25,872 nt of DNA from an uncultured Mollicutes bacterium (lineage in GTDB: Bacteria > Bacillota_I > Bacilli_A > Acholeplasmatales > Anaeroplasmataceae): positions 1-25,872 of the forward strand of contig CAMWJY010000001.1 in assembly GCA_947174685.1 (NCBI GenBank), in the 5' to 3' direction. Of the stretch, positions 143 through 25,872 are shown one piece after another. The notes beneath the pieces were generated by a model. It was not told the DNA's origin. It did not search any database and saw only the letters and a list, made by a program, of their open reading frames with translations. The translations under genes were made by a program, and so were the position numbers. The first letter of the stretch is position 1; each line of letters starts with the position of its first letter.

Positions 143-177
143 AATTGTCGAAGATTGCTAAGATCGGATGTGTTATG

Positions 178-8170: not shown

Positions 8171-8196
8171 GGCAGGGTTTATTCCCTGCCTTTCTT
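8171..8196 (+). terminator. Rho-independent terminator after ORF2
   Basis: Perfect 7-bp GC-rich stem GGCAGGG (8171-8177), loop TTTATT, CCCTGCC (8184-8190), then TTTCTT. Starts 4 nt after the TGA stop. Confidence 0.85.
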
Positions 8197-8381: not shown

Positions 8382-8410
8382 TTGAAATATGTATTGAAAT
8401 ATGATAAAAT
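8382..8410 (+). promoter_or_regulatory. Sigma70/SigA-type promoter of the giant ORF
   Basis: -35 TTGAAA (8382-8387), exactly 17 nt spacer, -10 TAAAAT (8405-8410) with extended TG (8402-8403). Very AT-rich upstream sequence could act as an UP element. Confidence 0.75.
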
Positions 8411-8418
8411 TAGATGAA

Positions 8419-8463
8419 TTCGAGTATTTTACTTACGCGCGTATGTACATACACGCACTCGAA
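8419..8463 (+). promoter_or_regulatory. Structured, locally GC-rich element in the predicted 5' leader of the giant ORF
   Basis: Outer inverted repeat TTCGAGT (8419-8425) / ACTCGAA (8457-8463) encloses GCG-c-GTATGTACATAC-a-CGC (8437-8456), a 20-bp palindrome with one mismatched pair. No known riboswitch recognised. Confidence 0.45.
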
Positions 8464-8517: not shown

Positions 8518-8524
8518 AAGGAGG
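8518..8524 (+). promoter_or_regulatory. Ribosome binding site AAGGAGG
   Basis: Consensus Shine-Dalgarno ending 9 nt before ATG 8534. Confidence 0.9.
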
Positions 8525-8533
8525 CTGTTCATT

Positions 8534-11500
8534 ATGAAAGGATCTTCAAAAAATATTTTAAGAAAAGGAATAAAGCTGATTGGTTTGCTTGCTATGATAT
8601 TGGCAATCGCCTTTATCATTCATAAGCCACTTCAAGAATCTACAGATTTTATAGACGAAGAAGAGTTTGTGCCTCAAGAGCAAACAGATAGAATAAATTT
8701 GGCAAGTACTGCTCCTAACAGCGTAACAGATACTGTTTCTAGCAGTTTGACAGATATTGTTTCTAATAGTGTGGAGTATATTGAGCCGTCATATTCTACA
8801 ACTTCATATAGTATTAGCTATAGTGGAAATACTGATGGTGTGAATACAATCACGTTAAATTATATGTATTTTAATGCATCCCCTGGAGGAAACATTCAAA
8901 TACCTTCCAATTATTATTCAGGTAATACAAATTATACAATAACACGGATTGCAACGAATTTCTATATTCGATATTCTTCATATTATTCATATTATCTTTA
9001 TCCATCAGTGGTAAAATTGCCTGCCTCTATAAGACGTATTGAAAATAATGCGTTTGCACAAAGTTACTTTAATAATACTAAATTTGACTTATCATTGTGT
9101 ACAAACTTAGAATACATTGGTACAAATGCCTTCTATACAACTTCTTCTGAAAATAATCGTAGTATTGTGCAAATAGCTGAATATATGCCAAATCTTACAG
9201 AAATTGGAGAGAATGCCTTTAGAAATGCATTTAAAGTGGAATATGATACAAACGATAGTATGAATATCATGAGCATCAAGCGTATTGGAAAGTATGCTTT
9301 TGGAAATGATACAAACACATCTTCAGGATATTCCTATACTGGTTTACGTGGTATCGTATTTGGAGATTCTTTGGAATATATGGGAGATTATGCTTTCTAC
9401 AATAACGATGGTCTAGAAGATATAAATATTCCAGCAAGTTGTCAAGCAGTTGGCGCATATGCATTTGCTAGCTGTCAGAATATGATTACTGCAACGGTAA
9501 GAACACCGAAAATTGGTACAGCTGCCTTCAAAGATGATGCATCCTTGGTTTCTGTGCGTATAAGTGATTTGACAGAAGAAATTCCTGATTATTGCTTCCA
9601 AAGCTGCAACGCTTTGAGTACAGTCACATTATATCCAAGTTATGATGATATTTCCTTAAGTACTTCTTTAACGAGAATTGGTAAGAATGCATTTAGTAAT
9701 ACAAACTTAAATACATTTACCCTTCCTCAAAATGTTACAGAAATAGGAGATTATGCTTTTGCTGATTGTCGTGGTATGATCGCATTTGATTATTCTATAG
9801 CAGTAGAAAACATGAAGTTAGGAAATGGTATCTTACAAGGCTGTTCCAATATTGAAGAAATTGTAATTCCAGGAGATTTATTTGATTCCTGTGGTATTGA
9901 TTTCTTACGAGATGCAACCTTGCTTTCTAAGGTTACTTTCTTAAAGCAAAATGTTTTAGAGCCAGGCTTCTTTGCAGGATGTGCAAATTTAACAACAATA
10001 ATCTTTGCTGCAGAAGATCCTATTACTCGTATTCCTGATGAGTATTTTAGAGATTGTGTTAAATTAAGTGAATTATCTTTTGTTGATACCACTGGTACAC
10101 ATCATGGTGAATTATCAAGAACAATTGAATCAATTGGTGCATATGCATTCTACAACACTGCTTTTCCAGAAATTACAGTTTCTAATACTGTTGACAGTGT
10201 TGGAAATTATGCATTTGCCAATATGCAATTATTAACATATGCAAGTGTGAATTCAAAAGATATCAGCTATAGAATGTTCTATGGTTGTCCATATTTAGAG
10301 ACTGTTTATATTGGCTCTAATGCTTCAAATGTAATTAAGAAAACAGAAGAGAACATAAGCTCATACGAATTTAATTATAGTACAAATGAGGAAACAATAA
10401 TAAACAAGACGGTTCAAAAAAATGCCGCTTTTGCAAGTTGTATTCGTTTAAATAATCTTACTCTAGAGTGTCCAACCCTAGGTGCTTATATGTTCGATGG
10501 ATGTCTAAGCTTAGAAGAAGTGGAATTAAAAGCGACAATTCGTAATGTAGAAACACATGCCTTTGCAAATTGTCAAGAATTAAGCAGTGTAACTTTACTT
10601 ACTAGTGCATTAGGTGAATTTATGTTCGCAAATGATACTAAGTTAAAGAATATCACCTTAAATCCAAACACAACTACAATCCCAGCACATGCTTTCTATC
10701 GTTCAAACCTAGAATCAATTTCTATCCCATCCTCTGTTACTACAGTTGGAAATTTAGCATTTGCATATTCAATATCTTTACAGTATGCAGATTTGAATTC
10801 ATGTCAAATGATTTCACCTTATATGTTCTTCAATTGTATTGCATTACAGGAAATTGAAATCCCTGCAAATGTTGGCGATAATGTTGGAGATTATGCTTTT
10901 GCTAATTGTACAAATTTAAAAAATGCAATTATTCATAATAGCAAGATTAGTAATTATATGTTCTATAATGACCCATTGCTTTGTGCGCCTTCTACAAGTC
11001 ATCAGACTTTAGTTTTAGGAAGCAATATTCAAACGGTTGGTCAACGCGCTTTTTCAAAATCTGGTGTTACAAAGGTTGAGATAGCAGCAGATCAAATCAG
11101 TAATTATATGTTTGAGGATTGTTTAAGTCTTCAAGAACTTACTATTGGAATTGATGATGGTACTGGTTCATTTGATGCACCTTCTCAAATTGGTTCTTAC
11201 GCATTTAAGGGATGTACTCATTTGAATAGTGTTACTTTAAACATTAGCAAAGTTGGTTCTCATATGTTTGATGGCTGTAATAGTCTTACTTATCTAGTCT
11301 TAGGAAAGCCTATGCAATTGATTGATGAATATGCATTCGCAAATTGTTCTAGTTTAGCAACTGTAAGTACTACAGACCTTACAAATTTAACTGAAATCAA
11401 ACAATATGCATTCGCAAATTGTATTAAATTAAATTCTTTTGTAGTTCCTGATTCTGTTACGAAATTAGGCTTAGGTGTGTTTAGCAATTGTGCAAGCCTT

Positions 11501-14500
11501 AATACTATTACCATTCCTTTTGTTGGTGAAACATTAAATGCTGCAACCACAACTCAGACTGGTTCTACTAGTACAGTATTTGGCTGGATTTTCGGTTCAA
11601 TAGCTTCAGATTCTTCTGCTAGAATTACCAGCTATTATTCAGATACTGGCAATGTTTCATATTATGTTCCAACAGGATTGAATAATGTTATCATTACCCA
11701 AGAAAAAATTGTTATTTATGGTTCATTCTATGGGTATACAATGATACAATCTATTAATATCCCACTCAATACAGAAATCATCCAATCAAAAGCTTTCTAT
11801 GGATGCGAGGGATTAACAGACTTTGTTGTTCCATCTACAGTGAAGAATATTGGTACCGAAGTATTGGCTGAATGTATTGGATTGAGACAAGCTACATTAA
11901 ATTGTAATATTATGGGAACAAAGATGTTCTTCAATTGTGTTAAACTACATACAGTTCACTTGAAAGAAGTTAAATATGTTTCAACCTCTGCATTCCAAGG
12001 CTGTGTAGCATTAGAAATAGTAGACTTGAATCAAGGCAATGGTAGCTTAGGCAATATTTGTACAACTATTTATGAAAAAGCCTTCTATGGATGTAGTAAT
12101 CTTGTTACCCTTGAATTCCCATCTACGATAACACTTATCGATTCTATGGCATTTATGGATTGTGTGAAATTATCTTTTATCACATTACCAAGCAGTTTAA
12201 CTACGTTAAAACAACAGGCATTTGCAAATTGTGATAGTTTAGTATCCATTGTAATCCCTCAGAATTTATCTGAATTAGAAGCATCAATCTTCGTTAATTG
12301 CGATAACATAAGATCTGTGTTATTTACGAATGAGATTGTTGGAGAACGTATGTTTGAGGGCTGTAATACTATTCAAACAATTGAATTACAAAGAATTAAA
12401 GAAATTAAAAAGTTTGCTTTTTCAAATTGTTCTAGTATAGAAGATTTAATTTTACCAAATACTTTAACAACTCTTGGTCAAGGTGCTTTTATGAATTGTG
12501 CATCTATAAAAGAACTTGTTGTGCCAGAATCTGTTGTTTCTGTTGATGCTAGTGTATTCCAAGGCTGTACTGATTTACTTTATGTAACACTTAAAAATAC
12601 AAAAATGGGAACAAGTATGTTTGAAAACTGTACAAGCTTAAGAAATGTAGCTTTTGGAGCTCCAGAAACAGCTCCAGCTTATGCAATTTCTTCTAGAGCT
12701 TTCTATGGATGCTTTGAATTGCTATTCCCAGAATTGCCAAAAAATATTAATGAAATTGGAAGCTGGGCATTTGCTCAATGCTATAGAAATACAATTATTA
12801 ATATTCCAAAGACGATTGGAACTATGGGAGTAGGTGTATTTTGGGATATTGATGTTGAGGAAGCTATCATACCATTCATAGGTATGAATCGTGAACCAGC
12901 ATATCTTTCATATAGTGGTAATTATGGTTATTCAAGATATGTATTAGGTTGGATATTTGGTGCATCTAATCCTAGTTTGAATCCAACTATTGTGGCTAGT
13001 GGAACAAATTATACAACTCCATCTAAGGCTTATGAATGTAAAGTAAGCTATAATAATTCATATTCTTACTACTATAAGACAGAAGCTTGGTATTTACCTA
13101 AGTCTTTAACGAAGGTAACAGTGACAGATGCAAAAACTATACCATATTTTGCTTTCTGGTCAGCAGTAAATTTGACTGATATTGTAATAGAAGATACAGT
13201 AGAAATTATTCGTGAAAGTTCAATGTATAATTGTACAAGCTTAACAAATCTAGTAGTTCCATTCATAGGACTTGAACGTGGGGCTACAGGTGTTGCAAAT
13301 ACAAGTATTTTCTATGGTAGTTCTACGATTCGTTTCCATAAGAGCAGCATTGCATCATGGTTCTTGACAATGCCTGGTGGAAGCTATAGTTCTGTAGTTT
13401 ATAATGACTATGATAAAACTTCACCAGTAACTACGGTAGTTACGAGTGAACTTTCTATGCCAGCTACGACAAATTATAGTCATCCAATTCGTTATCAAGT
13501 TCCACTTTCTTTAAAAAATGTTGTAATAAGAGATTCTAATAATAAGAATTCTAGTTCTAAAAATTCTATAGGATTAGGTGAAGCTGCATTTTATAATTGT
13601 TCAATGATAAAAAATGTTACTTTTGAAGGTCATTTAGTAGCAATTGGTAAGAATGCGTTCTATAATTCTGGCATTGATTTCATTGATATTCCTAGTACGG
13701 TTGGAACTGTTGGCGAAGGTGCTTTTTCAGGCATGAAGAGCTTAGAAAATGTTATTGTTCGTTCATCAAGTATTTCTTCAAAAATGTTTGAAGGCTCTAC
13801 TGGATTAAAGAATGTTGAGATTTTAGGAACTAATGTTTCAGTTGGTTCTGCTGCATTTAGAAATTGTACATCTTTACTATCTGTTAACTTTAATCAATCT
13901 GTAATTAGTGTAGGAGAAGAAGCGTTCGCTGGATGTACGAAGTTAGAATCCTTATACATTAATAAGATTGGCTGTATATCAAATGGTGCGCTTCTTGCTG
14001 GATCTCACAATTTTGGATATTTATTCGGTAAGACTGCTGGTACAGGATTAGTTGCAAATACTACTCAGATTTCTGAAACAGAAACTGTAGTTAGATATTT
14101 ACCACAAAATTTATCTGTATACTTTATTGGTAGCGAAATTCCTGCTTATGGTTTTGCTGGTGTTTCAAGTATTCAAATAATCGATTTAGCTGAAGGCTTA
14201 ACAAAAATTGGTGATTATGCATTTAAAAATACTACAAATTTGAAGACTATTAGAATCCCATCATCCTTTAAAACGGATGGAACAACACCTGCTGGTGGAA
14301 AGAATATTTTCGAGAATTCTGGCTTAGTAACTGTTTATTTTGGTGAAGGAATTTCTAAAATATATGAGGGAATGTTTGCAGATTGTAGTGAACTTACAAA
14401 TCTGATTTTCGAGTCAACAACTACTATATATGAATACCGCTATATTTCAAACAATATATTCGAAGAATATAAAAAGGTAGGTTATACAGGTCAATTTATT

Positions 14501-17500
14501 TCTACAAATCGCTTAATTTGTGGTGGTAGAGATTTGACTGTAGGTACTGCAGATGACATTGAAAATATTATAATTGGTGGAGATTCCAAGTATTATCTTG
14601 ATAATCAAGACGGTACTTATTATGCATATGGTAAGGATACTTTGTTAGGAACATCTGATGATGTCTTAATTGGTATGGGTAATGACCAAGTATTAGGTAG
14701 CGATGATGACTTCGTTATCGTAGAATTTGGTGGTAAAAAATATAAAGATTTCTTTGATAATACCTATTGTACTATTACTATTGTAGAAGCAGAAGATGGA
14801 CAATGGAATTATGCATTTGGAATGACAAGATATACAAGAATAAATAATGCTTTTGTTGAAATTATTTTAGATGAAAAAGACCAAGCTTACATTGCTGTTC
14901 AAGATGATCAATATATTCTTTACCGTAGTACAGGCAAGGATGGAATCATTGGTACAGAAGATGACCGAATTGTTTTCTTAGGATTAACGGGTACAGAATA
15001 TACTAACATAACTGATGCAATTATTTATGATAGTGTCTTTGTTTGGGATGGCAAATTATATTATGATTATAGAGATAATACTTATCAAGAAATTGTTGTT
15101 TCTTCTACAGATGCCAATGGCTTTAGATTAGAAGAAATCTTTGGTGCTGGTCCAGATGCAATCATTGGTACAGAAGATGATATCTCTAAGTATACATCTA
15201 TAACTTTTGATAAGATTCAATCAGATGATTCTTTAGCGGATTATGGTAAATTATTATCTACTATCGATCAGAAGGCATTACAAGAATATACATACCAACG
15301 CATTATTACTGGCGATGATGGTACACATTACATTTATTTGCCTTGGGCTTCTTATTTGAATGAGCCTTCTTATTTAGGCTGTGGTAGAGATGGTCTATTA
15401 GGTACTGACGATGATATTTTAGGCGCTACAACAAACTTTAATATTGTTGTTGAAACTCCTAAACCAGAAGAAGAAATTATCATTCCAGTTGTAAATACGA
15501 CAACCTATAGAGTTTATGAATATAGAAGATATGAAGATAACGTTATGGCAAATACAGTTAAAATAATAGAAGAAGAAGCCTTCATTAACTGTACGAGCTT
15601 AACAAATTTAGTTCTTTCTGCACAATTGGTTGAAATTCATGACAAGGCATTCTTTAATAGTGGCTTAGAAGAAATAACAGTTCCTTCTTCAGTAGAATTC
15701 CTTGGTAGACATGTATTTGCTGAAAATAAGAGTTTAGTAAATGCAGTCATTATGTGTGAAGTCATTGGAGAATATATGTTTAGTAAGGATGAAAAACTTG
15801 CAAAAGCTTCTATCGCATATAATACAAGAGAAATAAGTAAAGGTGCATTTTATGAATGTAAGTCTTTAAGAATCATTACTTTCCATTCTAATTTCATTCA
15901 AGATATTCATTATGAATTGCCAGATGGATATTTCCCTGATGGAAGTGAGCCTTCTAATGGATCACCTGATGAACCAGAGGATCCTCTGCCGGGTGAGGAC
16001 TATGTTACATTCTTAGTTCGTAGAGCTCAAAGCAGTGCTGTAACTGTTGAAAATGGATTAGATAATAAGGAAGGTACTGCAGACGATTACTATAGCTATG
16101 GTAATTATTATAAACTAATTGGTATTGACTTAGTTGCTCAAACAATGGATGATATTGTTGTATTAATTTATGATGGCGCATATTATGAAGTAGTAGGTTA
16201 TCAAAATTTAAATAAAACAATTAACCTATATCGAAAAGTGACTTATTCTGCAGGAACAAATTCATTTATTTTTGGTGATTATTTCTTAGGAAATAGCAAT
16301 GGTGAATTCTCTTTAGAAAATCAATCAGTAACATTAAATTTAATAGAGGATGCAAGTGGTAATTATTCCTATAAAGTGGGTAATTTAGTATATGATTATG
16401 GCCAAGATGGTAAGCTTGGTACTACAGATGATGTCATCACTATTACAATTGATCAAACGACCTATGTTGTAGTAGAAATTGAAGGATCATATTATACTGA
16501 ACTTGCTACAAATGTTTATTATGAAGTAGATGTTGATTCCTTAACACTTAGACTTGTTTATTATGATGGTACAAGCTTTGTAGATACAATTGCATCTATT
16601 ATGAATCAATACTATTTTGTAAATGAAAATCACACATTACAATTGATTTCTAATGGCTCTATTGAAGAAGATGTTTATATTTTAGATAATAACATTTTAG
16701 TTTCAGTAGAAGAAAAACAGCCTAATCAATTCTTTGAATTCTTAAGAGGTAACTTCTATCGTTTATGGCAATATTCCAATAATCAGTTTAGATCATCTAT
16801 TGTTTGTGTAATGGATGAAGAGTTTGAAACTTTAGAAGATGCAGTATATTTAAGAGGAAATGATACATATGCTGTCTTCCTTGGAAATGCTTTATATCAG
16901 GTTCCAGGAGCTGATGGACTTTACGGTACAGATGATGATGAATATATCATCAATGATAATCCAACAGAAAATGTTGGTGGTCTAGTTTTCGTGTATCGTT
17001 CTGATGGAAAATACTATCATTATCATAATTTCAATATTTACTTTGTATTAGATTTAGATAATTATGTTTATAGCTATGTATGTGCTGGTCTAGATGAAGA
17101 TCCAACTACTGAAAGTGATAACTTCACAAATGTTGTTATAGGAAATGACGGTAACTTCTATTTGAACAATGAAGACGGAACTTATTATACTGTAACTAAC
17201 AGCAAATTAACTGGTACAGCTTCTGATACATTGGTTTGCCCTCAGGATGCTACAACTATTGGCAATCCAACAGATTATGTATTAAGAAAATATAATGAAG
17301 AATTCTATAGAGATTATTTAGATAATACCTTTGCAAAAGTTGATTTTGTAAAGCAAGGTAATTATTGGAAGGCTCAATTATCTGATGAACGTTTTGTAGG
17401 TACAAATACAGGTGCATTAGATCCTACAATTACACCAAGAATTACAGTGGAAAATAGAAATGGATTAGTGTATATCGATAATCATGATGGTACATTTACG

Positions 17501-20500
17501 TTATTAGGTAAAGATAATCTATTTAATACTGCTGATGATACACTTCATTTATTAATGGAAAATCAAGTTGCAGATGCAGATGATCCAAAGGTTGTTAAGG
17601 GATCTTACGTAAGTCAAGGTTCATCTGAAGAAGAAACGTATTATTACTTAGATATGGGTGATAATCATAACGTATATCGTAAGTATCAGATTTCTGGAAC
17701 AGAAGGAAATTATGAATATACTGACTTAGGTTTAATTGCAGCTAACATTGATTTTAAACCAGGTAATGTAAATGATGTTACTGCTTTCTATAATGAAACT
17801 TTAAAAGCATACTATTATTTAGATTCTTCTAGTGCTAGAAGAGGCTATGGTGAAGATGGTATTCTATATGGTTCCGGAAAGAATCAAGATTCCAAATATG
17901 TCATGGCTGATGGAAACTATGTAGATGTTACAACAATCACATTAAATGGTGTGGCTAATCTATATCATATTAATGCGGATAATACATATACAAAATATAT
18001 AGAATTAGATACACCTGTTGATGGAAATACGCATAGAGTAGACGGCTATGTTTGCTTAGGAAGTGACCGTGTTCTTCAAAGCACCGATTCTACTGATGTA
18101 GTAGAAGTCATTGTTAATGGTGAAGTGCTTCATTTCTTACATATAGCAGGAATGCCAACATATATTGCTGCTGGTGAAGATGGTTTACTAGGCTTTGGCG
18201 ATGATGATATTTTATGTCATGTTGGAACTGGCGGAATAGAATTCACAGGTGAAGGCTCAGATGATATCCTTGATATCGTTGCTGGAAAAGAAGATGAATA
18301 TTATTATAAGCATGTTGCAGGAAATATTTATCAACGTATTGAAAGTGGTGTATTAGGACGTTATGTTGCAGCTGGACTTGTTTCAGGTGAATACTGTGTT
18401 GGTACAGCAAAGGATTTAGTTCAAAATACAAATGATATTCAAAACATTACTACAGATTATGTAGAATTCGATTCAAATAACTATTTACTTGCTACAGCTG
18501 ACGGAATAATTAGCTTTGAAGAAAGTCAAATGGTACATACTTCAAATATTAATGACCCAGCTACTTATGTACTTGTACATAATGGTAAGGATAATACTTA
18601 TCATACTGCTGATGACTACATTGTAGTAGATGGCATAGCAACATTCGCACAACAAGATGGATTAATTGGATCAACAGATGATTTGACAAATGTTGTTTTA
18701 GGCTTAGACGAATTACCTTATGAATATGATTCTGTTAAGGATATTTATTATACCTATACTTTATCAGTAGATAGATTTGTTGAAGCCTTTGACGGAAATT
18801 CAAATCGTATCGCTCTATATTCTTCAAATGCTGTTGGCGATAGTGAGGATAAGACTTTAACTGCTCTAACTTTAAATGGCACAACTCAATATTATTTACA
18901 AAATAATTCTACAAGCTTTTATACATATGCAACAGGTACTATATTAGAATATTTAGTTCATGTTGGCTTGAACGATGACGGAACAGCTGCCTCATTAGGA
19001 AGTGTTTATAACTATGCAATGGTTGGCAATACTGCTCACTTTGTTGGTCTAGATTTAAGAATCGGTACAAGTGATGACTTGGTTGCGTTCTTAGGAGAAA
19101 ATGATGAACGTCCATATACATATGTTGATTCTATAGATCATAACATTTATATTACATATGATTTAACAACTTATACAGAATTACCTTCCCCTACAGGCGG
19201 CAAGTATATCATTTCTGCAGGTAGTGACAGAAGAATCGGAACAGATGATGATATTGATACTGTTATTCAGGTATCTGGTCACTATTATTATACAGATATG
19301 GATGGCTTGTATTTCACATCACCTAATAATATATTAGGATATTCTGACATGAGAATGTATGTTGGCGCTGATGGTGAGATAGGTACAAAGGATGATTACT
19401 ATAATGTTACTCGTTATCTACCTGGTAACCTTGGATACAAGGCAACCTTCGTTGGACCAGATGGCTATTATAGCGGTGGTGACGATTTAATTGCAGTTCT
19501 AGGTGTAAATCAATATGCTTACTATGCACTTACAGATGCAAAGAAGAATCAATACAATAACTTATATAGACGTTATAGTATGGATGAAATGTCTTATATC
19601 TCATTAGTTGGTGATACAATTTGTGGTGGTGCAAATTGTCGTCCTGGAGATTCTGATGATATTACAGAAACTAGTGGCAAATTGGTTCACGCACAAAATG
19701 GTGATTGGTATTTGACAGTTGAAGGTAGTACAAAAGAGTATTTGAATAAGAGCTTTGATGGTTTACTTGGTACTGCAGATGATAAACACATCTTTATTGG
19801 TGAGGATGCTGAGCTTGGTACTTATGACGATTATTATTGGATTTTAATTGATAATTTCAATCGTAAGGTATTCCCAGGTACAACACCTATATTAGACAGT
19901 GATACAGATGAAGTAAAAGAGTGGAAGAGATTCCATGGTGATGACGTATTCTTTACTGAAGATGATTATTATAGTGTTCCATCTGAACAAATTGTTGAGG
20001 TTGAAAACCAAACTCCTTATTCTCTAGAAAGTATTCAGGATTATGCATTCTATAATTGTGTTTCTTTAGAGCATTTACAATTATATTCTCCTGATGATTT
20101 CAATACTTATCAAAACTTAAATACTTTAGGTTCCTATGCTTTTGCTGGATGTACTTCTTTAAAAGAAATGATTTTCCCTTATACTCTACAAGGAGATAAA
20201 TTGACATCAGCAGATGATACTGGATATGGTGAATATATATTTGAAGGCTGTACATCATTAGAGACTGTTACTTTCAATGAAACATATTTAAGCCATGCTA
20301 CCTTTATTCCTAAAGGAATGTTTAAAGGATGTATCTCTCTATCTGAATTATACTTCTATGATTCCTTAACTAAGCTTGAAATGAATCATTTCTCACCTTA
20401 TCTTGAGGAAATTAGAGAAGAAGCATTTATGAATACATGGGCTATGGATGAGGATGGCAAGCCAATTTCATCAGATCCAGAGATAGGAAGCGTTGTAATT

Positions 20501-23500
20501 GAAAAATCTACTCTTAAGGTTTTAGAGCACGCATTCTATAATTCAGACATTACTCATGTAACCTTTAAGGCTGAAGAACAGATTGAGTTTGGTTCTGAAG
20601 TATTTAAGAATTCTAAAATAGAATATGCAGAATTCAATTTTATAGAAACATTTGCTTATCGTATATTTGATGAGTGTATATATTTAAGCACAATCTATAC
20701 ACATGAAAATGGAGTAAAGCTTGAGAAAAATACTTTATCAAGTGATGTGAAAAACATTGAAGAGCAAGCATTCAGAGGAACAATTGCTCTAAAAGAACTT
20801 CATATAGATGATGAGATAGATTATATTGGTGATGAAGCATTTATAGGAACAGGATTAGAGTCTATTCGTATCCCTTCATCCCTATCAAAGGAAGATACAG
20901 AAGATCATTTAGGTGTATCTGTTTTTGAGAATGCAAAATCATTGACTTATGCAGAATTTGCTTATGGTACAGTAATCATTCGTGATAAATTATTTAAGAA
21001 TTGTACTTCCTTATCAACTTTACAATTCTATGATTATGAAGGAAACCAAACAGGGGTCGCTGTTACAGCAAATGAGGGTATTTATGAGGTTGATTTCGTA
21101 GCTAAGGAAGATTATGTAACCTCTGGTACTGTTACGGCTCTACAATTAAATACTTTCGCAACAACTGTAACTACAGTGGAGCAATATGCTTTCTATAACT
21201 GTCCTTTAAATGGTATGATTGATGGATCCTATACAGATACTATTCATACAATCACATTTACAAACAGCTTGACAAATCTTGGTGATTATTGCTTTGCATA
21301 TACTGATATTGAAAGTATTGCAATTCCTTCAAGCATAAAGCAAGAGAATATCGGTGATTGTGTATTTGCACATTGTAAAAAACTAAAAGATATTGTCTTT
21401 GAAAATGAAGGCCTTGGTAATCAAATGTTCTATGATTGTACAGGTCTTATCAGATTAGAGTTCCCAAGTGGAGTAACCTCTATTGGTGCTTACGCATTCC
21501 AAAATTGTACCGCTTTGGAGACTGTTATCATTCCTAAGGACGTACAATATATTGCAGAAGGTGCTTTTGCAAACTGTATAAAGATTTCACAGCTTACCTT
21601 ACCATTTATTGGTTCTGAGCGTGGAAGTACAGGTGAAGAGGGATTATTTGGTTGGATTTTTGGTAGTAATCCAGTTGATACTATTGAGCCTACAAGACAA
21701 TATTATTCTCAAACTGAATATAAGGATAACTATATCCCAGTTACAATTCAAAGAATCACAATTACTGATGAAACCTTAGTTAGCTATGGTGCTTTCTATA
21801 ACTGTGTATTAGAGTATATTAAGCTCCCAGATTTACAGGACAAAGATGTAAATGCAGATAATGTTAGTCAATTGGTACGCATTGGCGATTATGCATTCTA
21901 TAATTGTCCAAATCTAGATACTGCATTAATTCCTACTCAAATTACTGCTATCGGTAATTATGCCTTTGCATACTGTGTGAATGTAGAAAACCTAGCGCTT
22001 CCAGCAGGCTTAAAGGAATTAGGTAATTATTCTTTCTATCATTGTGAATCTTTACCTACTATTACAGTTCCATCCTCTGTTTCATCTAGTTTGATTGGTA
22101 CACATGTATTTGCATACTGTACATCAATTCATACTTTATATTTGGAAAATGATTCATTGGGTGCTAAGATGTTTAGTAACTGTATTAGCTTAGTTTCTGT
22201 TGTAATTCCTGTTGGAGTTACGACAATTGAAACAGCAACCTTTGAAAATTGTACAAGTTTAAAATATGTTGCTATTCCAGAAACTGTAACTGAAATTAAC
22301 GAAGCAGCCTTTAAGCAATGTGCTTCATTAGAGGTTTTAATCTTACCATTCATTGGATCTGAACGAGGAAATTCTGGTACGCCTCAATCCTTATTTGGAT
22401 GGGTATTTGGTACTACTGGTTCAGCAGCTGATTCCTTTGATGGTGCACAAACAGTAAATCAGGTTTATGCTGCATCTAAATCTAGAAATGTCTTAGTACC
22501 AAGCACATTAAAAGAAGTATATATTACAGATGAAACTGTGATTGGTTATGGCGCATTCTCTAACTTCTATATGTTAAAGAAAATCGTTATCTCTCAAGAC
22601 TTAAAATTCTATGGAGATGATGAGAATCATACATTTAGTTTTGATTTACAGCGTGATGAAGATGAAAATGTAATTGGTGTAACACTTCCACTACAGGATG
22701 CTACCTTATATAATGGTATGTATATATATAAGGATAATACATATACTATGCCAAATCAGGCTACACCTTTAGATGAAGAAGAATCATTGAGTACAATGAT
22801 TGATTTCTATAGCTTATATGTTGATACAAATATTGCACATATTTATCCTTATGCATTCTCTAATAATAATGGATTGACTAATGCTTTCTTAGGCGTTACA
22901 AATATAGCAGATTCTAGTTATGCATTTAATGATTGTTCTAAATTAGAGTATTGTTATATGCCTGATGCTACAGGTACCCAAGCAGATAATATGTTTGCTT
23001 ATTGTACAGGATTAAAGCGTGTTATCATCCCAGATACAATTAATATCTTAGGTGAAGCTGCATATCGTTGGTGTTTGAATATTGAATACTTCCAAGTACC
23101 TTATCTTGGTCGTGATGGCGGTACGCTTATTGATGGTAAGAGATTCCAGCAAACAATAGGCTATCACTTTGCTCCAGATGAGACTTATAGAGGAAGTGAA
23201 TCTACTTATTATAATAGAAATATTTCTTCTTATTGTGGTGGTAATTTCACCTATGATCCTACCGCTCCAGATTATAATTCTTATTATGGAAGAACTTCTA
23301 TACGTTATGTGCCTAGAAGCTTTAAGCTAGTAGTCACTTTAGATACACGTCTAACTTATTCTAGTTTAGCACAAATGGGCACTGCATTAACTGAAGTATA
23401 TTTCTCTGATCAATTAACATATATAGAGTCTAATTTCTTTACTAGTACACCTGATGTAAAGAGACTTGGTGTATGGGATTCTACTAATTATCATATTAAT

Positions 23501-25872
23501 GAAATTCCAGAAGGCCAAGCAAGATTTACGGATAATTTATTAACTATTGCAGCTCAAGGCTTTGCTGGTTGGCATGGTCTAAAGGATATTGTAGTACCAA
23601 ATAGTGTACAAATGATTGGTACAGATGCATTTGTTAATACAGGTCTTGTGAAGATGGTTTTACCATTTGTTGGTGTAAGTAGACCTCAGGATCTTTCAAA
23701 ATATCCTACAGGAAATTTAGGATTAAATGCTACTTTTGGTTGGTATTTTAATGAAGATGATAACAATTATAGCGTTCAAAATACTCGTTGGAATGCAACA
23801 AAGGTTACTTATCCAATTAACTCACAAAAGGTTTCTAGTTATAATCCAGATTCAGCAGTTTGGGTTCCTTCAACGTTAAGAACTGTAATCATTACAGATA
23901 CAGATACAATTGCTGATGATGCCTTTAGAAATATGTCAATGATTCAAAGAATTGTCCTTCCATTTGGTCTAGATACAGAGGATGAGAATAAGCTAGGTAT
24001 GCCACCAGTGTATGCCTCTGATGAAGCAGAGCTTTGTGATATCTCTGTAACCTCAATCGGTAATCATGCTTTTGATGGTACAGGCTTACTTGAAATGTAT
24101 ATTCCTGCAAGTGTTGATACAATAGGAGAGTATGCATTTAGTAATAATAAATCAATGACAAAGTTTGTATCTAATACAGATGCAATTAACAATTATATGT
24201 TCTATGGCTGTACTAGATTGTTTGATGTTGTATTAGATTATATTACAGTTATTCCAGATTATGCTTTCTATGAGTGCGATGCATTAGTATCTATCCATAA
24301 TACAAGTGAGGATGATTGGAATATATTTGAGCATCAAATTACATACATTGGAGATTATGCTTTCTATGGCGCTGATCATTTCACTTACCCACTAACAGAA
24401 GCAGAAGCGAATACAACTTTAATTACTTCTATTGGCTGGTATGCTTTTGCCAATATTGCTGATATTGGTCAATCAGGCAGTGATATTGTAGTTCATTTAC
24501 CTGTTGATTTGAATACACTAGGTGAAGGTGCATTCTATAACACACCTAATATCTCTGAATTCTATATGTATGATAAGGTTACATCTATGCCTTATGAACA
24601 TACATATACGGCAGCTTCAACAGAATATAAAGGTATTTTGGAGAATGTTGCTCACTTGAGAATATTCAAGAGTGAGAGTGCAATCATTATGGAAAGAATG
24701 AACATGAATGATGCAAAGCTTGAAACATTATATATTCCTTATGTAGAAAATATAAAGGCTTATGCATTCTATGGAAATACTTCCTTAAAAGATGCAACAA
24801 TTTCTTCTGCAAACATTATAGAAGATTATGCATTCTATCATAATACATCTTTAAGAGACTTTGCCACTGGCGCTTATATTGGTGGTTCCTTTGATGCTAC
24901 AACTACGGTGTTTGATACATTAATTACATCTATTGGTAATTATGCATTTGATGGAGATACAGTATTAGTTTATCCATTTAAGAATCCTTTAAATGATGCA
25001 ATCGTGATTACATCCATTGGAAATTATGCATTCAGAGATTGTAAGTTTATGGGTGGTTCTAAAGAAGTGTCTACAACTGTAGGAGAAGATACAGTTATTT
25101 CTACTCAAGCACTTGGAAAGGCAGATGTTGTCTTACCTAAAACATTGACAACATTAGGTGAAAATGCGTTCTTAAATGATACGAATATTCGTTCATTAGT
25201 AACTCCAGAAGGATTAGTTACAATTGGTGATTATGCATTTAGAAATTGTACCGATTTACAGGAAATCACTATGCTTGGTGAAATTTCTGGTGCTGGTATG
25301 TTTAGAGGGGATACTGCGCTTAAAAATGAAGATGGAACTAAGATTCATATAGAAAAATTGACAATAATAGCAAGAGAAATGTTTGCTGAATGTATCAATT
25401 TGAAAAATATTTACTTGCCAAAGCAAGATGTTGAGACGAATGCTTTAGGTCTAAAAACTATTGGTGATTTTGCATTCTTTGATACACGTGCTGTAGTAAA
25501 TGATTTTGGTACTGATGAGTATCATGAAACAATTTATGTTCCTAATACGGTACAAACCATTGGTTCATTTGCATTCTATAATAATCAGGCTATTAAAAAT
25601 ATCTATATTGAAAAAGATTCATTATTGACGATGGGTGTTTCAACTTTTGCAAGTTGCTTTAGTCTAGAAACCTTAACTATCCCATTCATTGGCTATCGTC
25701 AAGGGGATGATACAACTTCCAATTATTTGTATTTCCCATACAATATTAATAGTGTTAATACTACTACAAAGGCTTATTCTACAACATATTATTATTATTC
25801 AACATTACATTTTAATTTCTATTTGTATGAATATGCTTACTATAATCCAGCAAATAATGCAAGAACATATAA
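8534..25872 (+). CDS. Giant secreted/surface BspA-type LRR protein with inserted acidic GxDxxxGTxDD-repeat domains (partial, at least 5779 aa, runs off the 3' end)
   Basis: ATG 8534 gives MKGSSKNILRKGIKLIGLLAMILAIAFIIHKP, a basic N-region plus hydrophobic segment with a possible AIA signal peptidase site. Manual translation gave no stop, and the last codons ...PANNARTY (TAT 25868-25870) are in the same frame. The track lists no + ORF here, which fits an ORF that lacks a stop within the window. LRR_5-like blocks at about 9008-14413, 15551-15883 and 20015-25872. Confidence 0.93.
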   Translation, partial: MKGSSKNILRKGIKLIGLLAMILAIAFIIHKPLQESTDFIDEEEFVPQEQTDRINLASTAPNSVTDTVSSSLTDIVSNSVEYIEPSYSTTSYSISYSGNTDGVNTITLNYMYFNASPGGNIQIPSNYYSGNTNYTITRIATNFYIRYSSYYSYYLYPSVVKLPASIRRIENNAFAQSYFNNTKFDLSLCTNLEYIGTNAFYTTSSENNRSIVQIAEYMPNLTEIGENAFRNAFKVEYDTNDSMNIMSIKRIGKYAFGNDTNTSSGYSYTGLRGIVFGDSLEYMGDYAFYNNDGLEDINIPASCQAVGAYAFASCQNMITATVRTPKIGTAAFKDDASLVSVRISDLTEEIPDYCFQSCNALSTVTLYPSYDDISLSTSLTRIGKNAFSNTNLNTFTLPQNVTEIGDYAFADCRGMIAFDYSIAVENMKLGNGILQGCSNIEEIVIPGDLFDSCGIDFLRDATLLSKVTFLKQNVLEPGFFAGCANLTTIIFAAEDPITRIPDEYFRDCVKLSELSFVDTTGTHHGELSRTIESIGAYAFYNTAFPEITVSNTVDSVGNYAFANMQLLTYASVNSKDISYRMFYGCPYLETVYIGSNASNVIKKTEENISSYEFNYSTNEETIINKTVQKNAAFASCIRLNNLTLECPTLGAYMFDGCLSLEEVELKATIRNVETHAFANCQELSSVTLLTSALGEFMFANDTKLKNITLNPNTTTIPAHAFYRSNLESISIPSSVTTVGNLAFAYSISLQYADLNSCQMISPYMFFNCIALQEIEIPANVGDNVGDYAFANCTNLKNAIIHNSKISNYMFYNDPLLCAPSTSHQTLVLGSNIQTVGQRAFSKSGVTKVEIAADQISNYMFEDCLSLQELTIGIDDGTGSFDAPSQIGSYAFKGCTHLNSVTLNISKVGSHMFDGCNSLTYLVLGKPMQLIDEYAFANCSSLATVSTTDLTNLTEIKQYAFANCIKLNSFVVPDSVTKLGLGVFSNCASLNTITIPFVGETLNAATTTQTGSTSTVFGWIFGSIASDSSARITSYYSDTGNVSYYVPTGLNNVIITQEKIVIYGSFYGYTMIQSINIPLNTEIIQSKAFYGCEGLTDFVVPSTVKNIGTEVLAECIGLRQATLNCNIMGTKMFFNCVKLHTVHLKEVKYVSTSAFQGCVALEIVDLNQGNGSLGNICTTIYEKAFYGCSNLVTLEFPSTITLIDSMAFMDCVKLSFITLPSSLTTLKQQAFANCDSLVSIVIPQNLSELEASIFVNCDNIRSVLFTNEIVGERMFEGCNTIQTIELQRIKEIKKFAFSNCSSIEDLILPNTLTTLGQGAFMNCASIKELVVPESVVSVDASVFQGCTDLLYVTLKNTKMGTSMFENCTSLRNVAFGAPETAPAYAISSRAFYGCFELLFPELPKNINEIGSWAFAQCYRNTIINIPKTIGTMGVGVFWDIDVEEAIIPFIGMNREPAYLSYSGNYGYSRYVLGWIFGASNPSLNPTIVASGTNYTTPSKAYECKVSYNNSYSYYYKTEAWYLPKSLTKVTVTDAKTIPYFAFWSAVNLTDIVIEDTVEIIRESSMYNCTSLTNLVVPFIGLERGATGVANTSIFYGSSTIRFHKSSIASWFLTMPGGSYSSVVYNDYDKTSPVTTVVTSELSMPATTNYSHPIRYQVPLSLKNVVIRDSNNKNSSSKNSIGLGEAAFYNCSMIKNVTFEGHLVAIGKNAFYNSGIDFIDIPSTVGTVGEGAFSGMKSLENVIVRSSSISSKMFEGSTGLKNVEILGTNVSVGSAAFRNCTSLLSVNFNQSVISVGEEAFAGCTKLESLYINKIGCISNGALLAGSHNFGYLFGKTAGTGLVANTTQISETETVVRYLPQNLSVYFIGSEIPAYGFAGVSSIQIIDLAEGLTKIGDYAFKNTTNLKTIRIPSSFKTDGTTPAGGKNIFENSGLVTVYFGEGISKIYEGMFADCSELTNLIFESTTTIYEYRYISNNIFEEYKKVGYTGQFISTNRLICGGRDLTVGTADDIENIIIGGDSKYYLDNQDGTYYAYGKDTLLGTSDDVLIGMGNDQVLGSDDDFVIVEFGGKKYKDFFDNTYCTITIVEAEDGQWNYAFGMTRYTRINNAFVEIILDEKDQAYIAVQDDQYILYRSTGKDGIIGTEDDRIVFLGLTGTEYTNITDAIIYDSVFVWDGKLYYDYRDNTYQEIVVSSTDANGFRLEEIFGAGPDAIIGTEDDISKYTSITFDKIQSDDSLADYGKLLSTIDQKALQEYTYQRIITGDDGTHYIYLPWASYLNEPSYLGCGRDGLLGTDDDILGATTNFNIVVETPKPEEEIIIPVVNTTTYRVYEYRRYEDNVMANTVKIIEEEAFINCTSLTNLVLSAQLVEIHDKAFFNSGLEEITVPSSVEFLGRHVFAENKSLVNAVIMCEVIGEYMFSKDEKLAKASIAYNTREISKGAFYECKSLRIITFHSNFIQDIHYELPDGYFPDGSEPSNGSPDEPEDPLPGEDYVTFLVRRAQSSAVTVENGLDNKEGTADDYYSYGNYYKLIGIDLVAQTMDDIVVLIYDGAYYEVVGYQNLNKTINLYRKVTYSAGTNSFIFGDYFLGNSNGEFSLENQSVTLNLIEDASGNYSYKVGNLVYDYGQDGKLGTTDDVITITIDQTTYVVVEIEGSYYTELATNVYYEVDVDSLTLRLVYYDGTSFVDTIASIMNQYYFVNENHTLQLISNGSIEEDVYILDNNILVSVEEKQPNQFFEFLRGNFYRLWQYSNNQFRSSIVCVMDEEFETLEDAVYLRGNDTYAVFLGNALYQVPGADGLYGTDDDEYIINDNPTENVGGLVFVYRSDGKYYHYHNFNIYFVLDLDNYVYSYVCAGLDEDPTTESDNFTNVVIGNDGNFYLNNEDGTYYTVTNSKLTGTASDTLVCPQDATTIGNPTDYVLRKYNEEFYRDYLDNTFAKVDFVKQGNYWKAQLSDERFVGTNTGALDPTITPRITVENRNGLVYIDNHDGTFTLLGKDNLFNTADDTLHLLMENQVADADDPKVVKGSYVSQGSSEEETYYYLDMGDNHNVYRKYQISGTEGNYEYTDLGLIAANIDFKPGNVNDVTAFYNETLKAYYYLDSSSARRGYGEDGILYGSGKNQDSKYVMADGNYVDVTTITLNGVANLYHINADNTYTKYIELDTPVDGNTHRVDGYVCLGSDRVLQSTDSTDVVEVIVNGEVLHFLHIAGMPTYIAAGEDGLLGFGDDDILCHVGTGGIEFTGEGSDDILDIVAGKEDEYYYKHVAGNIYQRIESGVLGRYVAAGLVSGEYCVGTAKDLVQNTNDIQNITTDYVEFDSNNYLLATADGIISFEESQMVHTSNINDPATYVLVHNGKDNTYHTADDYIVVDGIATFAQQDGLIGSTDDLTNVVLGLDELPYEYDSVKDIYYTYTLSVDRFVEAFDGNSNRIALYSSNAVGDSEDKTLTALTLNGTTQYYLQNNSTSFYTYATGTILEYLVHVGLNDDGTAASLGSVYNYAMVGNTAHFVGLDLRIGTSDDLVAFLGENDERPYTYVDSIDHNIYITYDLTTYTELPSPTGGKYIISAGSDRRIGTDDDIDTVIQVSGHYYYTDMDGLYFTSPNNILGYSDMRMYVGADGEIGTKDDYYNVTRYLPGNLGYKATFVGPDGYYSGGDDLIAVLGVNQYAYYALTDAKKNQYNNLYRRYSMDEMSYISLVGDTICGGANCRPGDSDDITETSGKLVHAQNGDWYLTVEGSTKEYLNKSFDGLLGTADDKHIFIGEDAELGTYDDYYWILIDNFNRKVFPGTTPILDSDTDEVKEWKRFHGDDVFFTEDDYYSVPSEQIVEVENQTPYSLESIQDYAFYNCVSLEHLQLYSPDDFNTYQNLNTLGSYAFAGCTSLKEMIFPYTLQGDKLTSADDTGYGEYIFEGCTSLETVTFNETYLSHATFIPKGMFKGCISLSELYFYDSLTKLEMNHFSPYLEEIREEAFMNTWAMDEDGKPISSDPEIGSVVIEKSTLKVLEHAFYNSDITHVTFKAEEQIEFGSEVFKNSKIEYAEFNFIETFAYRIFDECIYLSTIYTHENGVKLEKNTLSSDVKNIEEQAFRGTIALKELHIDDEIDYIGDEAFIGTGLESIRIPSSLSKEDTEDHLGVSVFENAKSLTYAEFAYGTVIIRDKLFKNCTSLSTLQFYDYEGNQTGVAVTANEGIYEVDFVAKEDYVTSGTVTALQLNTFATTVTTVEQYAFYNCPLNGMIDGSYTDTIHTITFTNSLTNLGDYCFAYTDIESIAIPSSIKQENIGDCVFAHCKKLKDIVFENEGLGNQMFYDCTGLIRLEFPSGVTSIGAYAFQNCTALETVIIPKDVQYIAEGAFANCIKISQLTLPFIGSERGSTGEEGLFGWIFGSNPVDTIEPTRQYYSQTEYKDNYIPVTIQRITITDETLVSYGAFYNCVLEYIKLPDLQDKDVNADNVSQLVRIGDYAFYNCPNLDTALIPTQITAIGNYAFAYCVNVENLALPAGLKELGNYSFYHCESLPTITVPSSVSSSLIGTHVFAYCTSIHTLYLENDSLGAKMFSNCISLVSVVIPVGVTTIETATFENCTSLKYVAIPETVTEINEAAFKQCASLEVLILPFIGSERGNSGTPQSLFGWVFGTTGSAADSFDGAQTVNQVYAASKSRNVLVPSTLKEVYITDETVIGYGAFSNFYMLKKIVISQDLKFYGDDENHTFSFDLQRDEDENVIGVTLPLQDATLYNGMYIYKDNTYTMPNQATPLDEEESLSTMIDFYSLYVDTNIAHIYPYAFSNNNGLTNAFLGVTNIADSSYAFNDCSKLEYCYMPDATGTQADNMFAYCTGLKRVIIPDTINILGEAAYRWCLNIEYFQVPYLGRDGGTLIDGKRFQQTIGYHFAPDETYRGSESTYYNRNISSYCGGNFTYDPTAPDYNSYYGRTSIRYVPRSFKLVVTLDTRLTYSSLAQMGTALTEVYFSDQLTYIESNFFTSTPDVKRLGVWDSTNYHINEIPEGQARFTDNLLTIAAQGFAGWHGLKDIVVPNSVQMIGTDAFVNTGLVKMVLPFVGVSRPQDLSKYPTGNLGLNATFGWYFNEDDNNYSVQNTRWNATKVTYPINSQKVSSYNPDSAVWVPSTLRTVIITDTDTIADDAFRNMSMIQRIVLPFGLDTEDENKLGMPPVYASDEAELCDISVTSIGNHAFDGTGLLEMYIPASVDTIGEYAFSNNKSMTKFVSNTDAINNYMFYGCTRLFDVVLDYITVIPDYAFYECDALVSIHNTSEDDWNIFEHQITYIGDYAFYGADHFTYPLTEAEANTTLITSIGWYAFANIADIGQSGSDIVVHLPVDLNTLGEGAFYNTPNISEFYMYDKVTSMPYEHTYTAASTEYKGILENVAHLRIFKSESAIIMERMNMNDAKLETLYIPYVENIKAYAFYGNTSLKDATISSANIIEDYAFYHNTSLRDFATGAYIGGSFDATTTVFDTLITSIGNYAFDGDTVLVYPFKNPLNDAIVITSIGNYAFRDCKFMGGSKEVSTTVGEDTVISTQALGKADVVLPKTLTTLGENAFLNDTNIRSLVTPEGLVTIGDYAFRNCTDLQEITMLGEISGAGMFRGDTALKNEDGTKIHIEKLTIIAREMFAECINLKNIYLPKQDVETNALGLKTIGDFAFFDTRAVVNDFGTDEYHETIYVPNTVQTIGSFAFYNNQAIKNIYIEKDSLLTMGVSTFASCFSLETLTIPFIGYRQGDDTTSNYLYFPYNINSVNTTTKAYSTTYYYYSTLHFNFYLYEYAYYNPANNARTY
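14417..15550 (+). repeat. Non-LRR insert 1 (about 378 aa) with 6 GxDxxxG[TS]xDD motifs
   Basis: Motifs at 14525 GRDLTVGTADD, 14630 GKDTLLGTSDD, 14678 GNDQVLGSDDD, 14933 GKDGIIGTEDD, 15149 GPDAIIGTEDD and 15383 GRDGLLGTDDD. No LRR periodicity in between. Confidence 0.85.
15884..20014 (+). repeat. Non-LRR insert 2 (about 1377 aa) with about 16 or more GxDxxxGTxDD-type motifs
   Basis: Exact matches at 16055, 16400, 16907, 19046, 19220, 19364 and 19799, plus about 9 near matches (e.g. GKDNLFNTADD, GEDGLLGFGDD, GKDNTYHTADD, QQDGLIGSTDD, SFDGLLGTADD). Rich in Tyr, Asp, Gly and Thr. Opens with a Pro/acidic linker (LPDGYFPDGSEPSNGSPDEPEDPLPGED). Confidence 0.85.
21290..22580 (+). repeat. Internal duplication of a 248-aa LRR plus PFIG-module unit (744-nt offset) in the giant ORF
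   Basis: Colinear anchors all at a 744-nt offset: PSS (21326/22070), EN..LG..MF (21401/22145) and PFIGSERG (21602/22346). These are followed by LFGWIFG/LFGWVFG and ITDETxxxYGAF in both copies. Confidence 0.8.

Follow-up and report, generated by a model that had tools for sequence, protein, structure and literature searches.

A stop-free frame at the end of a gut bacterial contig is the beginning of a conserved ~49 kb leucine-rich repeat gene

Introduction

Contig CAMWJY010000001.1 of an uncultured, Acholeplasmatales-related gut bacterium (25,872 nucleotides, analysed in full and called the window below) ends inside an open reading frame (ORF) that begins at position 8534 and has met no stop codon when the sequence runs out. 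The locus raises the question of whether a frame of this length is a real gene, how far the gene continues, and what a protein of such dimensions might do. We find that the frame is the beginning of one real, intact and conserved gene of ~49 kb, and we describe below the protein it is predicted to encode, a giant built around leucine-rich repeats (LRRs).

Results

The open frame is real and intact

The frame covers positions 8534 to 25870 of the forward strand, 5,779 codons from an ATG start to the end of the window (17,337 of 25,872 bases, 67%), in a listing that allowed open ends. An earlier note on this DNA had claimed an uninterrupted ORF of at least 5779 residues over two-thirds of the window and had proposed translation as a check for an in-frame stop; the translation contains none. 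Only four ORFs of at least 100 residues are present in the window, this one included. At 33% G+C, stops make up ~7.5% of random codons, and the probability of 5,779 stop-free codons is ~1e-195. Because the window is the entire contig C1 of its bin (241 contigs, 1.24 Mb, 72% complete, 33% G+C, N50 of 5.3 kb), the frame is truncated by assembly and not by biology.

The giant gene holds no direct DNA repeat of more than 80% identity over ~50 nt and no notable tandem array, and the longest exact repeat within the window is at most 21 nt. With repeats this short and divergent, a collapsed repeat is not indicated. In Logan unitigs of three animal-gut metagenomes, all from a single study, the window sequence occurs with single-nucleotide polymorphisms (SNPs) only and no indels seen; being short, these unitigs attest to local sequence and not to long-range continuity. 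Among the 40 SNPs listed of 81 in total, 33 are synonymous and 32 lie at third codon positions, with a ratio of nonsynonymous to synonymous polymorphism (pN/pS) of ~0.06. Taken together with a frame kept in at least five species (see below), this ratio supports purifying selection on the giant gene, and it supports the suggestion of the earlier note that the gene is maintained.

Orthologues supply the length and the missing end

Using as query the larger of two non-LRR segments of the protein (insert 2, described below), we searched 40 relatives. Four genomes of the same genus (G002, G004, G009 and G014) carry stop-free frames of 16,138-16,498 residues with 60-64% identity to insert 2, and a fifth, more distant orthologue (G007) has a stop-free frame of 16,337 residues with 33% identity. 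The contigs that bear these five complete orthologues measure 100-196 kb, and one 32.9-kb contig of G010 is a single open frame from end to end. Measured from the first start codon, the orthologous proteins are as follows.

G004: 16,440 residues
G014: 16,497 residues
G002: ~16,091 residues
G009: 16,204 residues
G007: 16,336 residues

The G004 gene is 49.3 kb long, and its product has a mass of 1.835 MDa and an isoelectric point of ~4.45. The full size left open in the earlier note can now be placed at ~16,100-16,500 residues, which greatly exceeds, as that note had anticipated, the length of typical BspA proteins. One colinear high-scoring segment pair (HSP) at 65.8% identity joins the window protein to residues 1-5775 of the G014 protein. 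By this comparison, the window is predicted to be the 5′ 35% of a ~49 kb gene encoding ~16,400 residues. Because the window is colinear with independently assembled orthologues, misassembly is excluded, which, with the lack of a collapsed-repeat signature, effectively answers the concern over a misjoin that the earlier note had raised.

The other end of the gene is also present in the bin. Contig C99 starts with a 5′-open frame of 516 residues. This frame is 64.5% identical to residues 15983-16496 of G014 and terminates with a Dockerin_1 domain (38.8 bits against a cut-off of 22.9), the sole dockerin of the bin. The earlier note had left the C-terminal anchor open; the C-terminus is a type I dockerin and anchors the protein to neither membrane nor wall by a signal of its own. 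None of the other contigs in the bin has a 55-nt k-mer overlap with the 3′ end of C1, though many contigs overlap by 55 nt. Two contigs were considered as its continuation and rejected. C29 (2,653 residues, open at both ends) and C26 (2,511 residues, 5′-open) match the orthologues weakly and belong to different large genes; their LRR similarity to the window gene is no more than weak. On its reverse strand, C7 shares 131 nt with the beginning of C117, and the joined frame has at least 2,400 residues and no BLAST match to the window LRR protein.

Several independent assemblies (G018:C7 and C32, G015:C38, P0004, P0262 and P0263) cut the gene at residues ~5,500-6,300, the interval in which the window also ends (5,779); the two G018 pieces of 5,610 and 10,680 residues sum to ~16,290. 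No exact repeat explaining breaks at residues 5,500-6,300 was found in the complete orthologues, where long repeats occur only at residues 11,800-12,280. There, at residues ~11,800-12,280 in the orthologues G004:C4 and G014:C11, a unit of ~243 residues has been recently duplicated in tandem; the duplication leaves a 777-nt exact repeat in G014 and several of 86-148 nt in G004, and it likely breaks short-read assemblies mid-gene.

Domain architecture of the giant protein

The portion of the protein encoded in the window divides into the following segments, with nucleotide positions on the forward strand.

8534..25870, forward strand: 5′ part of the giant gene, 5,779 codons without a stop up to the contig end, colinear with G014
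8570..8620, forward strand: hydrophobic segment, residues 13-29 (Kyte-Doolittle), preceded by a Lys/Arg-rich stretch
Residues 30-139: linker
8951..14461, forward strand: LRR_5 block I, residues 140-1976 (Pfam, 16 LRR_5 stretches in residues 1-2000; local hidden Markov model, HMM)
14462..15559, forward strand: insert 1, residues 1977-2342 (366 residues), acidic and all-beta with four invariant loops
15560..15919, forward strand: LRR_5 bridge, residues 2343-2462 (best Pfam stretch 2343-2454; HMM map)
15920..19981, forward strand: insert 2, residues 2463-3816 (1,354 residues), with copies of a ~100-residue unit shared with insert 1
19982..25870, forward strand: start of LRR_5 block II, residues 3817-5779 (Pfam, 15 LRR_5 stretches, E 4e-186)

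Three segments score 793.6, 122.7 and 609 bits with the LRR_5 profile (PF13306; cut-off 27.7), which picks out ~34 stretches in all, and a local LRR HMM gives 46 domain matches over 3,433 of the 5,779 residues. These very strong Pfam matches (E 3e-243 and 4e-186) agree with the assignment of the earlier note to a BspA/TpLRR solenoid, and the large inserted domains that it had reported correspond to the two non-LRR inserts at residues 1977-2342 and 2463-3816. In the orthologues, LRR_5 block II extends to residue ~13,760, bringing the LRR_5 blocks to a total of ~9,500 residues in complete proteins; small inserts interrupt block II near 6,820 and 8,750. A non-LRR tail of ~2,690 residues with YDG/YNG-type modules (MBG_3 match sub-threshold) follows from residue ~13,760 to near the C-terminus, and a type I dockerin stands at the extreme C-terminus. 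The same domain map is recovered in all orthologues with the local LRR HMM and Pfam.

The N-terminal hydrophobic segment, which matches the signal-like N-terminus noticed before, is the only membrane-span-like stretch of the protein, in the window and in all five complete orthologues alike. A hydrophobic stretch at residues 4542-4568 was considered as a membrane span and rejected as an LRR strand. The C-termini of the giant orthologues, which end in the dockerin, contain no LPXTG motif and no C-terminal span.

The insert unit is a candidate new domain family

Both inserts are rich in Asp and Glu (16-18% together), with Tyr and Gly at ~9% each, and neither has a Pfam match. Insert 1 aligns with an internal part of insert 2 in hhalign (probability 99.2%, E 1.8e-19). 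Since the insert 1 HMM recurs across insert 2, with at least seven matches over its first ~120 positions, the building block can be taken as a unit of ~100 residues. Each such unit carries an invariant GxDGxxGTxDD loop, and in insert 1 the four GxDxxxGTxDD loops stay invariant as far out as the orthologue with 33% identity. A HMMER search with residues 2480-3679 against 1.84 billion representatives returned 11 proteins, mostly pieces of the same gene, while an Evolutionary Scale Modeling (ESM) Atlas feature search gave no usable match and a genome-contig search with insert 2 nothing usable.

AlphaFold2 models residues 2007-2211 as a confident all-beta structure (pLDDT 87.7, pTM 0.75, from 6 sequences) with the loops between strands, and insert 1 at pLDDT 83-93 over its core. 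Fold searches returned nothing above a template-modelling (TM) score of 0.15 or a Z of 3.4 for the 421-residue insert 1 model, and nothing above Z 4.2 or TM 0.39 for the 205-residue model. The top Foldseek matches are designed propellers (probability 0.96, TM ~0.2, propeller TM at most 0.26). Against 48,161 chains, VIA-align gave a best Z of 4.2, covering only two blades of S9-peptidase propellers, and the Atlas neighbours are choline-binding and Reg_prop clusters at TM of at most 0.39. The shapes nearest to the unit, an all-beta repeat with much Tyr, Gly and Asp, are beta-propeller blades and the beta-hairpin solenoids of choline-binding and CROP proteins, but the low structural scores (TM 0.2-0.39, Z of at most 4.2 over two blades) and the lack of a Pfam match assign its fold to neither class. 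A confident model without a fold match makes the ~100-residue GxDGxxGTxDD unit a candidate new domain family.

The host cell envelope and the search for a dockerin partner

For the RpoB of the bin, the best database matches show 92-95% identity, and those at 92-93% are labelled ‘Anaeroplasmataceae bacterium’; its identity to ‘Candidatus Avacholeplasma faecigallinarum’ is 87%. A wall-less mollicute, first assumed from these labels, was rejected: penicillin-binding transpeptidases are present in all 20 genomes of the genus (G000-G019; three to four in most), together with four to seven Mur ligases each. The cells of the genus are therefore probably walled, unlike classical Anaeroplasma, as judged from gene content. 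Sortase (PF04203) was not found in 19 of the 20 genomes and was found in one. Both results agree with a survey in which peptidoglycan genes occur in 40-60% of Anaeroplasmataceae genomes and sortases have been lost in these orders (PMC10868615). The scarcity of sortase also fits the anchoring signals of the window genes, of which the first has a lipobox and the other two have an N-terminal hydrophobic segment each. With no LPXTG motif or hydrophobic tail and with sortase in 1 of 20 genomes, the giant does not have the features of a sortase-anchored LPXTG adhesin.

The dockerin scores above the profile cut-off of 22.9, at 38.8 bits on C99 and 27 bits in G004, both outside the window, and two Asp/Asn-rich loops are present in the dockerin of all five complete orthologues. 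Dockerins of the genus mostly stand at the ends of frames of 10,680-16,498 residues, and in other genera of the order they end frames of 5,306-15,200 residues. One cohesin-like sequence was noticed in the genus. An ORF of G010 (L031, G010:C69:4636-6332; ORF 1399-1695, forward strand) has a signal peptide and a cohesin-like start whose PF00963 score of 22.9 bits falls slightly short of the cut-off. The gene immediately upstream encodes a protein with a terminal dockerin, and the end of the contig truncates the ORF. No other such sequence was seen in the 20 genomes. Used as a query, this fragment found no relatives in the other 19 genomes, the five with complete giants included.

Discussion

A probable membrane-tethered fibril

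We think it probable, reading from domain content and gene context, that the protein acts as a very long adhesin in the form of a membrane-tethered LRR surface fibril of 1.8 MDa. The protein would be exported by Sec and would stay tethered to the cytoplasmic membrane through its N-terminal segment; we infer tethering at this end because the genus is nearly devoid of sortase and the protein has neither an LPXTG motif nor a C-terminal span. The remainder would project outward as a fibril a few hundred nanometres long. As a rough figure, an LRR solenoid of ~9,500 residues in repeats of ~23 residues, each contributing a rise of ~0.5 nm, would come to the order of 200 nm, with the other domains extra. 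The LRR faces and the acidic, probably Ca2+-binding inserts would bind ligands on the host mucosa, on food particles or on other microbes. At the far end of the fibril, the dockerin would serve as an additional docking module, and the giant and the products of its three neighbouring LRR genes would together make up a surface layer of graded, adhesive proteins. Precedents exist in Tannerella forsythia, whose BspA mediates attachment, invasion and co-aggregation, and in host-associated mycoplasmas, which have BspA-like families (PMC4206474). An adhesin role has likewise been proposed for giant proteins of Clostridia that combine dockerin and LRR domains (bioRxiv 10.1101/2023.11.21.568195).

Several points weigh against this reading. 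Residues 13-29 may be either a signal anchor or a cleaved signal peptide. The middle ~10,200 residues are absent from the bin, and an interruption of the gene in this particular strain is possible. Binding of Ca2+ by the GxDGxxGTxDD loop is probable, judging from its invariant acidic character, and we know of no ligand for any LRR_5 giant. Finally, no cohesin (PF00963), and hence no cohesin-bearing partner that would place the giant in a cellulosome or another cohesin-dockerin system, scored above the cut-off in the 20 genomes of the genus; in G000, which is 72% complete, absence alone would be weak evidence.

Alternatives to the tethered fibril

The choice between a signal anchor and a signal peptide bears directly on whether the protein is released. 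If the signal peptide were cleaved, the dockerin could attach the protein to a cohesin-like receptor on its own or another cell, or an extracellular matrix could form. A hydrophobic core of only ~17 residues after a Lys/Arg-rich n-region does look like a signal peptide, dockerins are normally the attachment end, and the cohesin-like ORF of G010 comes right after a dockerin gene. Nonetheless, no clear A-x-A cleavage site follows the core, and the search for cohesin found none in 19 of the 20 genomes, among them the five that have complete giants; we judge release to be unlikely. The LRR array might also serve mainly as a protective coat or decoy that shields the surface from phages, host immune factors or proteases. 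Such a role would suit four adjacent LRR genes of graded size (640, 2,027, ~16,400 and at least 4,337 residues; >80 kb in G004) and a highly acidic protein. It would also suit the fast evolution of this surface protein, whose orthologues share only 60-66% identity, against 92-95% between RpoB and its best database matches. Within-species variation is, however, strongly purifying (pN/pS ~0.06), a poor fit to a target of antigenic variation, and specific binding is suggested by the conservation of the tip dockerin and the invariance of the loop motifs, so that a mainly protective function seems to us distinctly unlikely.

Two further explanations concern the frame itself. The bin is fragmented (241 contigs, N50 of 5.3 kb), and short conserved words common to LRR genes, at which Logan unitigs show two joints with sides of 21-24 nt, could in principle have led to a chimeric join of separate LRR genes or to a collapsed repeat. 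We hold this to be highly improbable, given single-HSP colinearity with independent assemblies from five other species, the lack of any exact repeat above 21 nt or any repeat of >80% identity over ~50 nt, and the conserved synteny of flanking genes. That the ORF is decaying, a pseudogene in the making, finds some encouragement in a database fragment (P0259) that ends in an out-of-frame tail; with 49-kb frames intact in five species, SNPs concentrated at third codon positions and domain order conserved, we give this explanation next to no weight. The membrane-tethered fibril is the reading we retain. An extension of it, in which the tip dockerin docks on cohesins of other gut bacteria (e.g. cellulosomal Ruminococcaceae) and the lineage-specific Ca-loop inserts are a new ligand-binding family, is in our estimate unlikely; if it were correct, a small-genome cell would live attached to fibre-degrading partners.

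Relation to known proteins and significance

The giant shares LRR_5 repeats, at very high scores, with BspA and TpLRR proteins such as those of T. forsythia and the 26-member family of ‘Candidatus Mycoplasma girerdii’. Like them it is predicted to lie at the surface of a host-associated bacterium and belongs to an expanded local LRR family, and adhesion or co-aggregation is the role proposed for both (PMC4206474). The longest BspA-like protein of ‘Ca. M. girerdii’ has 1,481 residues (PMC4206474), and the giant is ~11 times longer; its membrane segment is N-terminal where theirs is C-terminal, and it adds two lineage-specific beta-repeat inserts, a non-LRR tail of ~2,700 residues and a dockerin. 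LRR_5 proteins of 3,200-8,000 residues are common in metagenomes (565 of 1,156 candidates scored).

The giants of West-Roberts et al. 2023 (10.1101/2023.11.21.568195), among them Clostridia proteins with dockerin repeats and LRRs, are similar in being encoded by very large genes that are fragmented in short-read assemblies, in their LRR and dockerin domains and in their inferred attachment role; the host here is related to the Acholeplasmatales, lives in the gut and has a genome of 1.3-2.1 Mb. The Omnitrophota-type giants of the same study exceed 30,000 residues and have numerous transmembrane regions and a divergent SecA DEAD domain, whereas the proteins here have 16,100-16,500 residues and one hydrophobic span, and Pfam finds no SecA DEAD-type domain in window residues 1-5779 or G004 residues 5001-16440. 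With cellulosomal type I dockerin proteins the giant shares a C-terminal Dockerin_1 domain above the cut-off and two Asp/Asn-rich loops. It differs from them in that no enzyme domain was detected and cohesin or scaffoldin was not found in 19 of 20 genus genomes, and in that its dockerin is the last domain of a giant LRR protein, an arrangement shared with other members of the order whose frames have 5,300-16,500 residues. LRR and dockerin giants are thus already known, and the giant here is an extreme example of that kind; it stands out by its size relative to the genome, the new insert unit and a dockerin without detectable cohesin.

The giant gene takes up ~2.6% of a ~1.9 Mb genome (G004), and more than 80 kb together with its three LRR neighbours. 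Such an outlay suggests that reduced gut bacteria invest heavily in one surface structure, which probably defines their attachment in the gut. Dockerin-tipped giants recur across the order, while cohesins were not found in the genus searched. Gene callers that require a stop, together with short-read bins, hide genes of this kind, and several public assemblies hold only fragments of 5,500-7,200 residues of this one.

Start region of the giant gene

The following elements precede the giant frame.

8171..8190, forward strand: terminator-like hairpin after the second gene, 7-bp stem with 6 G-C pairs and a T-rich tail
8382..8410, forward strand: promoter-like TTGAAA-17-TAAAAT with TG extension, 10 of 12 positions matching
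8519..8525, forward strand: Shine-Dalgarno AAGGAGG, 8 nt upstream of the ATG, read in the sequence

The ribosome-binding site described in the earlier note is thus present, AAGGAGG standing 8 nt ahead of the ATG. The textbook, dedicated promoter of that note is upheld as a consensus match and no further: promoter-like sites number 5 in the region against 3.6 +/- 1.7 in shuffles, and because they are not enriched, TTGAAA-17-TAAAAT is to be read as a consensus match only. Hairpins like that at 8171..8190 average 0.1 in shuffles. An Rfam search of the window gave no match. The leader at 8419-8463 contains nested palindromes, outer TTCGAGT...ACTCGAA and inner GTATGTACATAC, plus TACGCGCGTA, in a spacer that is otherwise AT-rich; these palindromes are possibly an operator or an RNA structure.

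The neighbouring LRR gene cluster

Two LRR genes lie upstream of the giant in the window.

145..2067, forward strand: first cluster gene, a 640-residue LRR_5 protein (P0003) with a lipoprotein-type signal and LMGC lipobox; LRR_5 E 1.8e-35
2083..8166, forward strand: second cluster gene, 2,027 residues (P0002), with an N-terminal hydrophobic segment and YDG modules, then LRR_5 (E 1.9e-84)

A four-gene LRR cluster is syntenic in G004, G009 and G002, and consists of the lipoprotein-type gene (640-675 residues), the YDG and LRR gene (2,027-2,122 residues), the giant and a further LRR gene; in G004 it spans more than 80 kb. Orthologues of the first gene occupy the same position upstream of the giant in these three genomes at 37-42% identity, and syntenic orthologues of the second have 2,105-2,122 residues at 45-51% identity. 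The fourth gene encodes at least 4,337 residues in G004 and at least 917 on C99.

In the second protein, residues ~35-1000 form ~13 tandem modules of ~75 residues with a ‘YDG..H......G.LP.G’ signature and an MBG/Ig-like look, unreported by Pfam at E <= 0.01. YDG/YNG modules like these fill the C-terminal ~2,700 residues of the orthologues of the giant. In its N-terminal half, the first protein has approximately four Cys/His-rich repeats at residues ~40-370 (CxxC...CxxC and HxH-like pairs) with no Pfam match; placed ahead of its LRR_5 region, they are possibly an extracellular metal-binding or zinc-ribbon-like module.

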